From Octopus vulgaris (lineage: Eukaryota), in the NCBI GenBank assembly GCA_951406725.2, contig OX597838.1:45074001-45138000 (forward strand): a DNA stretch of 64,000 nucleotides, read 5' to 3'. Of this stretch, positions 25,714-64,000 are shown one piece after another; the first letter of the stretch is position 1; each line of letters begins with the position of its first letter. The notes beneath the pieces are model-generated. The model searched no databases, was not told the DNA's origin, and saw only the letters and a program-made list of their open reading frames with translations. The translations under genes and the position numbers were made by a program.

Positions 25714-25851
25714 GGCGGTGCCTCAGCATGGCCACAGCACATTAGCTGAAACTGGGAAAAAAAAAAAAAAAAAAATCAAATATATATATATTACGGAGAT
25801 GTACTCGCATGGCAAGTAATTTGATCTGAGATCGTGTGCTGAAACGAAAAC

Positions 25852-26053
25852 AGCGTGGAAGGTGTTTGTAAGCCATTTAAGAAACACACAAAAGCCGTTC
25901 GATTCATTTCAACATTTAAGTTTAATTTGTCAAAATATTTTCTTCGCTAAAATCCGCGACCTGTTCACTGACAAAAATCAGCACGGATTTTTGTCAGTGA
26001 AGAGGTCACGGTCTTAAAGCGACGAAAATATTTTGACAAATTCCACGCTGCAA
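25852..26053. repeat. Foldback insertion with G3-C8-type HHR-like motif in both arms (25926-25975 -, 25990-26040 +)
   Basis: Same family as 45545-45795. One arm has GTGAACA, the other GTGAAGA. Confidence 0.7.
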
Positions 26054-26083
26054 TTGTTTATATATATATATATATATATATAT

Positions 26084-26600
26084 ACGTTTAAATATTTGTT
26101 GCGCAAGATTTTTTATGTGAAGTCGTGTGTTGAAACAGATATTGTTATATTTCGGAATGGTCATATTGCCAGTTTAGCCAATAAAAACACACGCACTATA
26201 TATTTGGTGTTATTTTGCTTCAGTGATATTTATTTTTTACATTAATCTTAATCATATTTCGGCCAGAGTTCTTTTTCGTCACACTTCTGTGACCGCATCA
26301 GTGGTCCTTTGTTTTCTTCTTTCGTATTTGTGTCTCCCCTTACTAACCGTCAGCCATTTTGTATTTCTATTGTATGTCTTCATTTGCGCATGCTTATATC
26401 TCTATGTGCGTCTATGTTTATTTAGTGTGTGTGGGGGGGATGCCTGTAATATTTGTATCTTCTGTTTATATACATTCATGTAATTTGTATTTTGTTTTTG
26501 TTGTTGTTGCTTTTGTTCTAATTTTGTTCATGTGTTTACATCCACCCATTATTATCATTACATATGCTTGTTTGTATGTATAACAACAATGTTAGTAATA
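26084..26600 (-). mobile_element. Solo 3' terminal repeat (pLTR) of the Penelope-like element, with HHR motif at 26261-26306
   Basis: Near-identical to 56905-57420 with the same outer end. Flanked by (TA)n. Confidence 0.88.
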
Positions 26601-32221: not shown

Positions 32222-32257
<36 letters not shown>

Positions 32258-32264
<7 letters not shown>

Positions 32265-32475
32265 AATATGTTACATTACTCGATAGTCAAGATAAAACTC
32301 TGAGTTTCAGATGCCGAAGTGGGAATCCACGACATCTCTTCGGTTATCTGGCTATTTGAAAAACCTTTTTTTTCAAATAGCCAGATAACCGAAGAGATGT
32401 CGTGGATTCCCACTTCGGCATCTGAAACTCAGAGTTTTATCTTGACTATCGAGTAATGTAACATATTATTGTATA
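32258..32475. repeat. Perfect ~105-bp-arm palindrome carrying a U4C HHR-like motif (32383-32442 +, 32290-32349 -)
   Basis: AGATAA-CCGAAGA-GATGTCG..CGGCATC-T-GAAA-CTCAGAG-TT-TTATCT. Confidence 0.8.
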
Positions 32476-32542
32476 GATAAATTCCTCTATTTACATAATA
32501 TTGAGGTCTCTTTCTTTCTTTTGTTATCTTACCGTTTTACCA

Positions 32543-38039: not shown

Positions 38040-38300
38040 CATGCGCAAATAAAGACATACAATAGGAATACAAAATACAAAATGGCTGACCGTTAGTAAG
38101 GAGAGACACACAAATAAGAAAGAAGAAAGCAAAGGGCCACTGATGAGGTCACAGAACTGTGACGAAAGAACTCTGGCCGAAATAAGAATAAGATTAATGT
38201 AAAAAATAAATAAAGCTGGAGCATTTTAACACCAATTATATAGTGCGTGTGTTTCTATCGGCTAAACTGGCAAAATGACCATTCCTAAATACAACAATAT
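38040..38300 (+). mobile_element. Diverged PLE pLTR fragment with a canonical HHR (38135-38178)
   Basis: GGCCA-CTGATGA-G-GTCACAG-AA-CTGTGAC-GAAA-GAAC-TC-TGGCC. Homologous to 60550-60800. Confidence 0.82.
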
Positions 38301-38728: not shown

Positions 38729-39750
38729 ATCGTGACGTATTTTTGCCCTTTCAATATGGCTAACCCTTAAGGGTGGATGCTACTGTAGTTTTTAACCCCA
38801 GGAGGACACACTCCTCCAGCTGGCCATAGACACACTATCTGTGTCCTGTCAGTATTTGCAAAGGGAAGTCATCCTTCCCGTCTTCAACTTATGATACACA
38901 CGGACTCGAGTTTCGAGGTATTGACCTCTCGTCAGCGTGTGACAATCATAGTTGTCGCCGAGAATAAGATTTCCTTCACAAATACTTATACTTTTTCCAG
39001 CGTCCACTGTCGCTGTATATAACTCACTTTGATATTTATCATTGTTTGATTTCACTTTTTCAATATCAGCGACAGTGGACGCTGGAAAAAGTATAAGTAT
39101 TTGTGAAAGAAATCTTATTCTCGGCGACAACTATGATTGTCACACGCTGACGAGAGGTCAATACCTCGAAACTCGAGTCCGTGTGTATCATAAGTTGAAG
39201 ACGGGAAGGATGACTTCCCTTTGCAAATACTGACAGGACACAGAAAGTGTGTCTATGGCCAGCTGAAGGAGTGTGTCCTCCTGGGGCTAAAAACTACAGT
39301 AGCATCCACCCTTAAGGGTTAGCCATATTGAAATGGCAAAAATACGTCACGATGTGTTACCGCTACTGTATATAACTCACTTTGATATTTATCATTGTTT
39401 GATTTCACTTTTTCAATATCAGCGACAGTGGACGCTGGAAAAAGTATAAGTATTTGTGAAGGAAATCTTATTCTCGGCGACAACTATGATTGTCACACGC
39501 TGACGAGAGGTCAATACCTCGAAACTCGAGTCCGTGTGTATCATAAGTTGAAGACGGGAAGGATGACTTCCCTTTGCAAATACTGACAGGACACAGATAG
39601 TGTGTCTATGGCCAGCTGGAGGAGTGTGTCCTCCTGGGGCTAAAAACTACAGTAGCATCCACCCTTAAGGGTTAGCCATATTGAAATGGCAAAAATACGT
39701 CACGATGTGTTACCGCTATTGTATATAACTCACTTTGATATTTATCATTG
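38729..39750. mobile_element. Retrozyme-like array A: 353-bp unit, one inverted partial copy + about 2.1 tandem copies
   Basis: Units start at 39014, 39367 and 39720. Inverted arm 38729-39015. One HHR per unit. (TA)n flanks. Confidence 0.9.
39141..39185 (+). ncRNA. Type I hammerhead ribozyme (copies also at 39494-39538 + and 38897-38941 -)
   Basis: CACACG-CTGACGA-GAGG-TCAATA-CCTC-GAAA-CTCGAG-TC-CGTGTG: perfect stems I and II, palindromic stem III, GUC cleavage triplet. Confidence 0.93.
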
Positions 39751-39875
39751 TATGTATATATATATATAGAAATTCGGGGTGAGTACTTGATAATTATAAG
39801 CACCTGTGTAAACCGTTTGGTGGTGTAGGTGGTGGAGTAAATTGATCAAAATAAAAACATGATGCCAAGGATTCA

Positions 39876-43628: not shown

Positions 43629-45543
<1,915 letters not shown>

Positions 45544-45689
45544 CAATTGCAGCGTGGAAGATGTTTGTAAGCCATTTAAGAAACACACAAAAGCCGTTCG
45601 ATTCACTTCAACATTTAAGTTTAATTTGTCAAAATATTTTCGTCGGTTTAAGACCGCGACCTGTTCACTGACAAAAATCCGTGCTGGAT

Positions 45690-45740
45690 TTTGTCAGTGA
45701 ACAGGTCGCGGTCTTAAACCGACGAAAATATTTTGACAAA
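45690..45740 (+). ncRNA. HHR-like motif with G3-C8 core (mirror at 45625-45675 -) in foldback 45545-45795
   Basis: TTTGTCA-GTGAACA-G-GTCG..CGAC-GAAA-ATAT-TT-TGACAAA. Confidence 0.7.
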
Positions 45741-45790
45741 TTAAACTTAAATGTTGAAGTGAATCGAACGGCTTTTGTGTGTTTCTTAAA

Positions 45791-45857
<67 letters not shown>

Positions 45858-46139: not shown

Positions 46140-46511
46140 AAAAGGAGCCTCTCTCAACAACAAGACAAACAAAAATTTCGATGATTGCCTACATGGTAAC
46201 CAAAGCGATAACCATTATCGCTTTGGTTACCATGTAGGCAATCATCGAAATTTTATATAACACAATGAGAAACGAAAACATAGACACAAACCCAAGGAAC
46301 TGGACATTTTTCTTATTGTTGTTTAAGAAAAATGTCCAGTTCCTTGGGTTTGTGTCTATGTTTTCGTTTCTCATTGTGTTCGACGTTTTTTTGGTGTCCT
46401 GTACTCATATATGCGTGTATATATACATGTAGAGGTAGGTACGTACATATATGTATATATATATATGCATATGTTTTATTTATTAATATTATATATATAT
46501 ATATATATTAT

Positions 46512-47480
46512 TATAATATAGGGTGAAATTAATTAATTTGGAATAATCACTAATTTCACCAAGTAGATTTCGGCATGTAAAAGCCCCATTCGAGGAAAGT
46601 TTAAGCAATACTAAGTAATTAAGGGTTTAGCAACGATTTGCCTCACCACACACCGAGTTTAGAAATAGCAGTCAAAGAGTTATAGCTATTCTTTCTACTA
46701 AAAGGGAGATCTCAGTAAAACCACAGCACTTAAAAGGCAAACGCAGGTAAGAGAGAAAGAAATGACGACAATCATACAATATTAAGTCACCTACGGATGA
46801 GATCTCCCTTTTAGTAGAAAGAATAGCTATAACTCTTTGACTGCTATTTCTAAACTCGGTGTGTGGTGAGGCAAATCGTTGCTAAACCCTTAATTACTAA
46901 GTATTACTTAAACTTTCCTCGAATGGGGCTTTTACATGCCGAAATCTACTTGGTGAAATTAATGATTATTCCAAATTAATTAATTTCACCCTATATTATT
47001 ACTGATAACCATATTTCATCCCAGTAAATGACCACAACATCTTGTCCTGGCAGCACGCTGGTGGGGGGGAGGGGTGACACAAACTTTCATTCACACTTTG
47101 AATTTGGTGATACTGGTAACGGCTTTAGCTCGCTCTGATACTATGAGTTGAGGTGATGTCTTCTAGTATCTCCAAATTTAATATGCAATTATTCATAATT
47201 GTAGAGTCCTACGCTGATGAGAAAAATAGTTGGGTAAGACATAATTATCTAATTCTTATGCTTTCCTAAAACTTAATTTCGAAACGTACGTCCGTAGGTG
47301 ACTTAATATTGTATGATTGTCGTCATTTCTTTCTCTCTTACCTGCGTTTGCCTTTTAAGTGCTGTGGTTTTACTGAGATCTCCCTTTTAGTAGAAAGAAT
47401 AGCTATAACTCTTTGACTGCTATTTCTAAACTCGGTGTGTGGTGAGGCAAATCGTTGCTAAACCCTTAATTACTTAGTAT
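46512..47480. mobile_element. Retrozyme/pLTR-like element C: 576-bp unit (about 1.2 tandem copies, +) preceded by an inverted 286-bp arm
   Basis: TGAGATCTCCC at 46798 and 47374. 46512-46797 is the reverse complement of unit sequence. Confidence 0.85.
47208..47298 (+). ncRNA. Type I HHR with long stem II
   Basis: CCTACG-CTGATGA-GAAA..TTTC-GAAA-CGTACG-TC-CGTAGG. Predicted cleavage after 47292. Confidence 0.88.
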
Positions 47481-56868: not shown

Positions 56869-56905
<37 letters not shown>

Positions 56906-57498
56906 GTTTAAATATTTGTTGTGCAAGATTTTTTATGTGAAGTCGTGTGTTGAAACAGATATTGTTATATTTCGGAATGGTCATTTTGCCAGTTTAGCCA
57001 ATAAAAACACACGCACTATATATTTGGTGTTATTTTGCTTCAGTGATATTTATTTTTTACATTAATCTTAATCTTATTTCGGCCAAAGTTCTTTCGTCAC
57101 ACTCCTGTGACCGCATCAGTGGTCCTTTGTTTTCTTCTCACTTACTTGTGTCTCTCCTTACTAACCGTCAGCCATTTTGTATTTCTATTGTATGTCTTCA
57201 TTTGCGCATGCTTATATCTCTATGTGCGTCTATGTTTATTTAGTGTGTGTGTGGGGGGGATGCCTGTAATATTTGTATCTTCTGGTTATATACATTCTTG
57301 TAATTTGTATTTTGTTTTTGTTGTTGTTGCTTTTGTTCTAATTTTATTCATGTATTTACATCCACCCATTATTATCATTACATATGCTTGTATGTATGTA
57401 TAACAACAATATTAGTAATAATAATAATAAATCTAATCGAGAAAAAAAAAAAAAAAAAGAATATACATATACATATATATATATATACATACATATAC

Positions 57499-57535
<37 letters not shown>

Positions 57536-57653
57536 TACACACATATATACACATATACATATACATATATATACACATATACATATATATAGATATTCAT
57601 TTCTATTTCTTTAATTACCTGTGTATTTATTATGTTTGCAGGATCCACTATTG

Positions 57654-59207
57654 TCATATGTTGTGGTGTGCGCTATTGCTCCATTCTAGTTTTCTATTCA
57701 GGCTAGGTTTATTTTCTATTATATGTGTAGCTTCTGTAATTTGTCTAATTGTTGCATCTGTTCTATGTGTGGACAATATCTTAATCTCTATGTTATTGAT
57801 TGATCCCCCGTGTTCTTGTTCGGCGTGTTGGTACAGAATCGATGAGCTTTTACCTTCCTTGAGTTGTCTCCAATGTTCATTCACCCGCTCACCAATGCTT
57901 CTTGCAGTTTCCCCTACGTATGTTACTGTCTTGTTACTGCATCGTCCCTCTATACATCTTATACTATAGACCACATTTCTGGCTTTACAGTTCGTTTGTG
58001 GGCTAAATCTACATACAGTGCAATAGTTATCCGTACAGAGAGTTCTACTAAAAGGATAGGTTCTACCAATTATAGATCTGATAGGGTTGCCTGGCTTTTC
58101 AACAACCTTAATTCTTAGTTTAAGTTTATCTAGGGTCCTTCTAAAGCGGTACGCTAGTTCACCTCCAGGGGTGGTGTCAACGAACATGACACTCTGGTAT
58201 TTATGGCTATCATACCAAGAGTTGGCCTTCCTTATTTTCTTTTTTGTCCTTTCTATAGTGTTCCATGACTTGTTCCTATAGAGTGGGCAAATCCCATTCC
58301 TATCATTACATAATATATTATCAAATTTCTTCATGGCTCCTTTGTATACTCTGATCCTTTCTTTATGGCTGTAACCTGAGAACTGCATGCGGTGAATGAA
58401 ATACTGTATGTGTCTCTTTAATTCTGTAGGCTCGCACATGCGTGACACATTTCTCATTATTCTGACGAGGTCTGCCATCAAAATATTGAATTTGGCATTG
58501 CTCGCAATGGCTGAGTTCCGGTGGATCAGGTATTTTGAGGCCATAGGTTTTGCATAGTATGAATGAAGGATTTGGGTTTTATTTTTCACAATTTCTAGCC
58601 AGAGTTCAGTGTCTAGTACTGGTAGTCTATGGTTGGGGTGTTTAGTGGGGTAGTCTATTGTGACCTTAATACTCTGGTGGATGGAGTTAGCTATTTGCTG
58701 GATGCTCTCTATAGTATTAGTTTCTATTACTATATCAACAGTACTTTCTTGTGGGGGTGCCTTTACTACTATATTGATATCATCAACATAGCGAGAGTAC
58801 ATGTTTACGAGTATGGATTTCTGCAGTAGGCATTCTTTAAGCCTTCTGTCCCACCATACCATGAAGAGGTTGGCCACATCACCAGCGATACTAACACCGA
58901 TGGCTGCCCCCTCGTCCTGGGCATATATTTTATTATTAAATTTAAATGTGTGGCCTTTTAGGGTAACTCTTATACTAGCTCCTAGTGCATGTGCGATCAT
59001 TTTCTTTACCTGATGGACATTTGCGGGGCTCCGTATGGCTCTGGTCCATCCGCGCCATCTTTCTATATGTGTCTTCCTAGCCATAGAAGTAATTGTAGGC
59101 GGTCTACCTCTTAAACATCTACTGGGGCAGAAACTACTAAGATTATGTTTATCTAAGTATTCACTATTATATGTCAGTCTAAGTAGGAGGCCCAGTTCTT
59201 CATTCAT
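57654..59207 (-). CDS. 5'-truncated PLE polyprotein: reverse transcriptase + Cys-rich linker + C-terminal GIY-YIG endonuclease
   Basis: [81 protein letters not shown]. No stops over about 515 codons. Confidence 0.9.
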
Positions 59208-59221
59208 ACTATGCAAAACCT

Positions 59222-60112
59222 ATGGCCTCAAAATACCTGATCCACCGGAACTCAGCCATTGCGAGCAATGCCAAATTCAATATTTTGATGGCAGACCTCG
59301 TCAGAATAATGAGAAATGTGTCACGCATGTGCGAGCCTACAGAATTAAAGAGACACATACAGTATTTCATTCACCGCATGCAGTTCTCAGGTTACAGCCA
59401 TAAAGAAAGGATCAGAGTATACAAAGGAGCCATGAAGAAATTTGATAATATATTATGTAATGATAGGAATGGGATTTGCCCACTCTATAGGAACAAGTCA
59501 TGGAACACTATAGAAAGGACAAAAAAGAAAATAAGGAAGGCCAACTCTTGGTATGATAGCCATAAATACCAGAGTGTCATGTTCGTTGACACCACCCCTG
59601 GAGGTGAACTAGCGTACCGCTTTAGAAGGACCCTAGATAAACTTAAACTAAGAATTAAGGTTGTTGAAAAGCCAGGCAACCCTATCAGATCTATAATTGG
59701 TAGAAACTATCCTTTTAGTAGAACTCTCTGTACGGATAACTATTGCACTGTATGTAGATTTAGCCCACAAACGAACTGTAAAGCCAGAAATGTGGTCTAT
59801 AGTATAAGATGTATAGAGGGACGATGCAGTAACAAGACAGTAACATACGTAGGGGAAACTGCAAGAAGCATTGGTGAGCGGGTGAATGAACATTGGAGAC
59901 AACTCAAGGAAGGTAAAAGCTCATCGATTCTGTACCAACACGCCGAACAAGAACACGGGGGATCAATCAATAACATAGAGATTAAGATATTGTCCACACA
60001 TAGAACAGATGCAACAATTAGACAAATTACAGAAGCTACACATATAATAGAAAATAAACCTAGCCTGAATAGAAAACTAGAATGGAGCAATAGCGCACAC
60101 CACAACATATGA
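59222..60112 (+). CDS. Second, more truncated copy of the PLE ORF (RT thumb + GIY-YIG)
   Basis: Matches the left arm except for one residue that I could find (GRTYP vs GRNYP). Confidence 0.88.
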   Translation: MASKYLIHRNSAIASNAKFNILMADLVRIMRNVSRMCEPTELKRHIQYFIHRMQFSGYSHKERIRVYKGAMKKFDNILCNDRNGICPLYRNKSWNTIERTKKKIRKANSWYDSHKYQSVMFVDTTPGGELAYRFRRTLDKLKLRIKVVEKPGNPIRSIIGRNYPFSRTLCTDNYCTVCRFSPQTNCKARNVVYSIRCIEGRCSNKTVTYVGETARSIGERVNEHWRQLKEGKSSSILYQHAEQEHGGSINNIEIKILSTHRTDATIRQITEATHIIENKPSLNRKLEWSNSAHHNI

Positions 60113-60635
60113 CAATAGTGGATCCTGCAAACATAATAAATACACAGGTAATTAAAGAAATAGAAATGAATATCTATATATATGTATATGTGTATATATA
60201 TGTATATGTATATGTGTATATATGTGTGTATATATGTATATATATATATATATGTATATGTATATGTATGTATATATATATATGTATATGTATATTCTTT
60301 TTTTTTTTTTTTTTTTTTATAGATTATATTTATTATTATTATTACTAATATTGTTGTTATACATACATACAAGCATATGTAATGATAATAATGGGTGGAT
60401 GTAAACACATGAATAAAATTAGAACAAAAGCAACAACAACAAAAACAAAATACAAATTACAAGAATGTATATAACCAGAAGATACAAATATTACAGGCAT
60501 CCCCCCCACACACACACTAAATAAACATAGACGCACATAGAGATATAAGCATGCGCAAATGAAGACATACAATAGAAATACAAAATGGCTGACGGTTAGT
60601 AAGGAGAGACACAAGTAAGTGAGAAGAAAACAAAG

Positions 60636-60679
60636 GACCACTGATGCGGTCACAGGAGTGTGACGAAAGAACTTTGGCC
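60636..60679 (+). ncRNA. pLTR HHR motif with A9C core change (copies 57081-57124 -, 26261-26306 -)
   Basis: GACCA-CTGATGC-G-GTCACA-GGAG-TGTGAC-GAAA-GAAC-TT-TGGCC. Confidence 0.65.
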
Positions 60680-60793
60680 GAAATAAGATTAAGATTAATG
60701 TAAAAAATAAATATCACTGAAGCAAAATAACACCAAATATATAGTGCGTGTGTTTTTATTGGCTAAACTGGCAATATGACCATTCCGAAATAT

Positions 60794-60841
<48 letters not shown>

Positions 60842-63733: not shown

Positions 63734-63899
63734 TAGTTATCACCATACTAATATGGCAGTCTATAAATATAAGACTAAAGCTGTCGCTGATTAGCCCCAA
63801 GAGGCCATCGCCTCTAGCTAGCTATATGACACACGAAGCTGCATCTATTACAACCTTCGAACAGGGGAGGTCAGCCGCTTCACCTTGCTAGTCAGACAT

Positions 63900-63940
63900 C
63901 TGCAGACACGTTTCAGGGTTGTTGCCCTTTATCAATGCAG
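63900..63940 (-). ncRNA. Type I HHR with U3-A8 core, inside a repeat related to arrays A and B (63732-64000)
   Basis: CTGCA-TTGATAA-AGGG-CAACAA-CCCT-GAAA-CGTG-TC-TGCAG. Downstream TTGGGGCTAA and TCCCCTGTTCG echo array A/B motifs. Confidence 0.75.
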
Positions 63941-64000
63941 CGTAGTCAGACCCAGCATGTGTCGCTACTGACCGTCTCTGTTCGAAGATTTTATTTACCT

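Follow-up and report, generated by a model that had tools for sequence, protein, structure and literature searches.

A G3-C8 core pair in the hammerhead motif of a Penelope-type fold-back repeat from Octopus vulgaris

The window – the whole 64,000-nucleotide stretch analysed here, positions 45,074,001 to 45,138,000 of the contig – consists of animal DNA in which microsatellites and retroelements are abundant. Within it lies a short fold-back insertion (element A), whose parts are listed in Table 1 together with those of a second copy (element B) and of a longer Penelope-like element (PLE) from the same window. The two arms of element A, of 104 nt each, are 100% complementary around the junction between them. 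Since complementarity is complete over this length, the arms are the product of a single duplication event and not two observations: the preliminary description was correct in placing the core GTGAACA in both arms, but the two occurrences count as one. Read contigs placed on the left arm show many opposite-strand joints in the junction region (45676-45686), and the loose contig ends before 45547 are heterogeneous in three of the four runs shown.

Table 1. Coordinates of element A, its plus-strand hammerhead and related elements (positions are those of the window).
Feature	Position	Strand	Remarks
Element A, short Penelope-type repeat	45544..45792	.	head-to-head fold-back insertion; flanks are (TA)n/(TG)n runs
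Tail	45544..45572	-	29-base extension confined to one arm; element's 3' end
Left arm with hammerhead	45573..45676	-	G3 45668, C8 45663, G12 45641, U17 45632
Fold-back junction	45677..45688	.	12 bases; sequence identical to junction of element B
Minimal type I hammerhead	45690..45740	+	
Stem I, TTTGTCA/TGACAAA	45690-45696/45734-45740	+	7 pairs
Core GTGAACA (GUGAACA in RNA)	45697-45703	+	G3 45697, C8 45702, A9 45703
Extra G	45704	+	between A9 and G10.1
Stem II, GTCG/CGAC	45705-45723	+	private C·C mismatch at 45709/45719
GAAA	45724-45727	+	
Stem III, AATATT	45727-45732	+	palindromic; U17 at 45733
Right-arm 3' flank	45741..45792	+	tail absent; ends in (TA)n
Element B, second fold-back copy	25851..26056	.	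91% to element A
B left arm	25924..25976	-	core GTGAACA, G3-C8 (G3 25968); C11.1 changed to A, stem II broken, loop II changed
B right arm	25989..26042	+	core GTGAAGA (25997), G3·G8 mismatch; internal deletion precedes tail
Penelope-like element, RT and GIY-YIG domains	about 56905-60797		outward-pointing head-to-head arms, tail on one arm, TA repeats at both ends

Read outward, each arm of element A presents the same order of parts: stem I, GTGAACA, the extra G, stem II, GAAA, AATATT, U17 and the 3' side of stem I. The minus-strand hammerhead mirrors that of the plus strand, with its core G3 at 45668 and C8 at 45663. The arrangement – a three-way junction with stems I and II and with stem I open – is of type I, and the full topology previously proposed (a 7-bp stem I, stem II GTCG/CGAC, GAAA, a palindrome and the core GTGAACA) was recovered in both arms. 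U4, G5, A6, A9, G12, A13, A14, A15.1, U16.1 and H17 are all present, as is the G10.1-C11.1 pair; the core departs from the consensus only at C3/G8, which reads G3/C8 with the Watson-Crick pair retained. As had been pointed out, such a core is missed by CUGANGA patterns. None of 400 dinucleotide-shuffled windows contained a motif of this kind, and the 54-nt arm folds with a z-score of -3.1. The palindromic minimal stem III and the extra G at 9/10.1 are, in addition, marks of minimal PLE hammerheads.

Perfect inverted arms of 104 bases would also be expected of a MITE-like foldback DNA element in which the likeness to a hammerhead arose by chance. The Rfam hammerhead models give no match to element A at E values up to 10, as such an account would have it; the same models, however, are equally blind to the canonical-core PLE hammerhead at 38140. 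Chance resemblance sits poorly with the shuffled windows (0/400), and a foldback DNA element with the one-sided tail and with arm lengths and partners that differ among copies; we regard this origin as very improbable. A microRNA reading of 45641-45724 was rejected: its Rfam scores fall far under the gathering thresholds and are explained by the palindrome. Other near-perfect fold-back repeats lie at 32235-32497, 46172-46254 and 46259-46380, the first of which exceeds the Rfam threshold for mir-9 on both strands, probably also as an effect of its palindrome.

The insertion architecture of element A is of PLE type. Published marks of PLE insertion are an inverted 5'-truncated copy, a one-sided tail of ~30-40 bases and a microsatellite target (10.1101/2021.04.23.441226). 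Element A has, in miniature, the build of the PLE at about 56905-60797, whose protein shares 98% identity with one from Octopus vulgaris: TA runs flank element A, and only the left arm bears a tail. Hammerheads of the two elements have a common skeleton: CA before the core, the extra G, stem II GTC/GAC and GAAA-N4-UH-TG. Rather than a separate RNA gene, the element A hammerhead is best read as the terminal part of an inserted Penelope-like retroelement. The preliminary description had overlooked this Penelope context, but its identification of a hammerhead holds by topology and by the remaining core positions.

The PLE at about 56905-60797 was considered as direct parent of the element A family and rejected, there being no DNA similarity outside the ribozyme skeleton; for the same reason the parent is placed outside the window, and no RT plus GIY-YIG ORF linked to the family occurs within its 64 kb. 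Nor does the window hold tandem head-to-tail units of the family, a trait of non-LTR retrozymes. Searches of viral contigs, metagenome contigs and prokaryote genomes for family copies gave none, with two, three and one unrelated matches, respectively. Two arrays resembling retrozymes, each partly inverted and with canonical type I hammerheads, are found at 43737-45479 and 38729-39754 (periods 359 and 353), the former directly adjoining element A across a TA/TG run. At about 47208-47275 (+), within another inverted element (46513-47480), a canonical CUGAUGA hammerhead was noted by eye; its stem III is palindromic and its stem II region, of ~60 bases, unusually long.

If G3-C8 is a property of the family, then it should recur in independent arms. 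Four are at hand (element A, the two arms of element B and one in an X4 contig from outside the window), and G3 is present in four of the four and C8 in three. The X4 core, GTGACCA, has G3-C8 and differs at position 7. The preliminary description had reported GTGAACA from one arm of the second locus: the core with G3 at 25968 is indeed there, but C11.1 of this arm is A, and the omitted plus-strand arm reads GTGAAGA at 25997. To call the swap a family trait, as was then done, is likely correct but was overstated, given one arm with G3·G8. The latter could represent a real subfamily.

The family as a whole was approached at the level of reads, using contigs from four runs with four organism labels (of 24 runs listed) that were placed on the left arm of element A. 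Matching contigs numbered 11978, 5849, 8508 and 3601 per run. With thousands in every run, the family is very abundant, contig numbers and depth not being copy numbers. Two classes of 5' flank recur in all four runs, at 45676 and 45686, one of which may reach into a longer parent element. At 45646, between 98.5 and 99.2% of the summed contig depth differs from element A so as to give a fifth stem II pair: the majority of the family has a stem II of five pairs, and the mismatch is private to element A.

Where the read contigs could resolve it, the family retains the fold (stems, G12-A15.1 and palindrome). Across 45625-45640 – U17, the palindrome, A13-A15.1 and the 3' side of stem I – a single variant reaches 2% or more, and it preserves a U-G wobble; in the contig table for the four runs the palindrome (45633-45638) has no variant at or above 2%. 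Large family variants are located in loop II and in the 3' flank. Over 45593-45657, non-CpG variants of at least 2% affect one of the 24 structured positions and eight of the 41 that are unstructured (p 0.08), and structure-breaking variants affect none of the 24 (p 0.02), in Fisher comparisons for which the position classes and the range were chosen post hoc and which exclude CpG transitions as well as the change private to element A at 45646. On the ribozyme strand G12, at a CpG site, has decayed in 0.6-2.8%, compared to 3.0-6.1% for the three other listed CpG guanosines. The variant table has no row at 45668 (position 3) or 45663 (position 8), and this is not taken to show invariance: the two positions are respectively 22 and 27 bases from the stretch end and possibly in a blind zone, which spans at least 15 bases (45561 is unlisted, though it differs in element B and in the loose ends) and at most about 33. 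On the count of independent arms, G3-C8 is quite likely the majority state of the family.

Positions 3 and 8 form a known core pair, and the claim that swaps at this pair rescue activity agrees with published tests. Of the double mutants in this region that a full pairwise scan covered, none but the G-C swap rescued activity (PMC9901934); in a PLE hammerhead either single change (C3G or G8C) abolishes cutting, which the double mutant C3G/G8C partly restores (PMC11167929). On the strength of these two rescues the element A family sequence could cut after U17.

A contrary history is one of spread from an inactive founder. C3G would have come first and inactivated the ribozyme, and PLE copying would simply have continued, cutting being unnecessary for it, with C8 appearing later, unselected, in one lineage that happened to be successful; youth of the family, or a role of the structure in protein binding, would account for survival of the fold. 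The G3·G8 arm at 25997 is what such a history would leave behind. Mutation of the hammerhead was without effect on PLE insertion in vitro, so that cutting is dispensable there (PMC11167929), and Naiad PLEs have no hammerheads (10.1101/2021.04.23.441226). Those 5' loose ends with the best support fall upstream of the ribozyme, implying that the copies concerned derive from uncut RNA. In another PLE family, moreover, the core CUGAUGC (A9C) is carried on either strand by the element at about 56905-60797 (near 57120(-) and 60640(+)) and by a detached fragment near 26290(-), while a related copy at 38140(+) has the canonical core: since a departure from consensus is there common to two separate loci, sharing between loci does not imply selection. 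Against spread from a dead founder stand the avoidance of structured positions by subfamily variants and the reduced decay of G12. The exact second transversion needed to restore the pair is also unlikely to arise by drift: the crude chance of two core changes falling on positions 3 and 8 as G and C is about 1 in 495, with no correction for multiple families. We consider this history, in its entirety, unlikely, yet a serious competitor.

Folding predictions concern the monomer and the locus separately. In the predicted monomer ensemble G3 pairs with U17 at a probability of 0.84, and this pairing would close the core. It resembles the inhibitory C3-G17 pairing discussed in PMC3884650, where it is also said, as data not shown, that G3-C8 does better without C17. 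Read-through RNA of element A is predicted to form a single hairpin of 104 pairs (-186 kcal/mol) in which the probability of stem I is essentially zero; the locus itself therefore probably does not cut, and would be a passive copy. Because the two ribozymes of element A occupy opposite strands no cis dimer is possible at the locus, and the PLE tandem that a cis dimer would require was not seen for the family in the window. Any selection is best read as having acted on a parent lineage or a tandem master, and not on the locus of element A.

Weak activity of the monomer is the rule among minimal PLE hammerheads, which are poor cutters and need a dimer with paired palindromes (Cervera and de la Pena 2014, PMC4209133). 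The minimal type I PLE hammerheads of that study have in common with element A the open stem I, the extra nucleotide at 9/10.1, G10.1-C11.1, the tiny palindromic stem III, a frequent U17, dispersed high-copy families and opposite-strand pairs; the extra base is G in element A, but A, C or U in their consensus. Among the 56 representative PLE hammerheads of Fig. S3 (our count) G3-C8 is found in none, U3-A8 in two and U3-G8 in one, the underlying searches having favoured canonical cores. U17 occurs in 24 of the 56, and an oyster example has UUU; the UUU triplet, earlier called atypical, is thus unremarkable among these elements. Schistosoma mansoni carries a U3-A8 PLE hammerhead family with about 1,300 matches (PMC4209133). 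Natural U3-A8 core variants were published before (Perreault et al. 2011, PMC3088659); they and element A are both instances of natural covariation at the 3-8 pair, but U3-A8 takes two transitions and G3-C8 two transversions.

In the Poseidon PLE of Anolis (Frangieh et al. 2024, PMC11167929) the 3' tail follows the hammerhead, as it does in element A, and G3-C8, there a laboratory mutant, is here the natural sequence. Activity of the Poseidon hammerhead depends on the element's own protein, whereas no ORF in the window is linked to the element A family. Animal non-LTR retrozymes (PMC7229834; 10.64898/2026.07.22.740005) are likewise non-coding, of type I and proposed to derive from PLEs, but they are tandem, and the retrozyme cores in the window are canonical. 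Natural U3-A8 and engineered G3-C8 are both on record. A natural G3-C8 hammerhead, as in element A, was not found in print; the literature searched, of which coverage was incomplete (key papers beyond it could report one), yielded engineered cases only. None is mentioned in the available parts of PMC11014351, PMC8495972, PMC6155905, PMC7229834, PMC10085705 or PMC6765202, and hammerheads are not mentioned in those of a paper on Octopus vulgaris repeats (PMC13282606).

A comparison with phage sequences used one narrow pattern (stem II GTC/GAC) and counted the matches that pass a topology filter. C3-G8 passed in 115 of 129 cases among the matches listed, U3-A8 in 6 of 67, G3·G8 in 0 of 29 and G3-C8 in 1 of 13, the last being weak and probably due to chance. 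This suggests that G3-C8 is rare within the narrow pattern, and has no bearing on other architectures.

Together these data are consistent with the following account. The family would be the hammerhead-bearing end of a PLE family, or a short non-autonomous derivative of one, of which many copies were put into TA repeats, presumably by PLE reverse transcriptase and endonuclease. In the parent lineage the C3-G8 pair would have been replaced by G3-C8, and the fold kept thereafter. Like other minimal PLE hammerheads the ribozyme would be a weak cutter after U17, probably dependent on the element's protein or on a second copy, with which it would build stem III through the AATATT palindrome. That a weakly active G3-C8 swap has been kept in a PLE-derived hammerhead family is the reading towards which we lean. 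The stronger version of this reading is doubtful: that throughout the high-copy Penelope-derived family, in several octopus-type samples, G3-C8 is fixed, a non-C base is kept at position 17 – C17, it is proposed, would lock the core by pairing with G3 – and the RNA cuts as a dimer or with protein. Fixation of G3-C8 would mean that a valley of two transversions had been crossed.

A retained swap need not have been selected if a single mutational event supplied it. From stem I through the core the sequence is almost palindromic about position 3 (TGTCA-G-TGAACA), and fold-back events are plentiful in this region of the genome; a template switch or micro-inversion would turn the C at the centre into G, and stem I could serve as template for C8. 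A clean single switch, however, predicts a core one base shorter than that seen, an inversion accounts for G3 only, and the arms of the near-palindrome measure just 3-5 bases. Such a by-product seems improbable.

Replacement of the 3-8 pair across a family, followed by its retention, would if true amount to selection on the geometry of the active site. Element A would then belong to an animal ribozyme family in which G3-C8 occurs naturally, and would provide direct evidence of catalytic selection on PLE hammerheads, the role of which in endonuclease-bearing PLEs has been called unclear (10.1101/2021.04.23.441226); censuses based on CUGANGA would, moreover, overlook whole high-copy families. 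Since the copies number thousands, a tree can tell which of the two changes came first (via G3·G8 or C3·C8). If instead the family mixes G8 and C8, such elements spread without a working ribozyme.

Other departures at position 3 were noted. A hammerhead-like motif with U3-A8 (TTGATAA; 63895-63947, minus strand, position 3 at 63935, stem I of five pairs) precedes a LINE-type RT frame by ~200 bases. In six viral contigs (L217, L221, L223, L231, L235 and L240) GTGATGA recurs together with a stem II and GAAAC; the G at position 3 appears there to close the preceding hairpin, and the motif is possibly a relative of the hammerhead that lacks C3.
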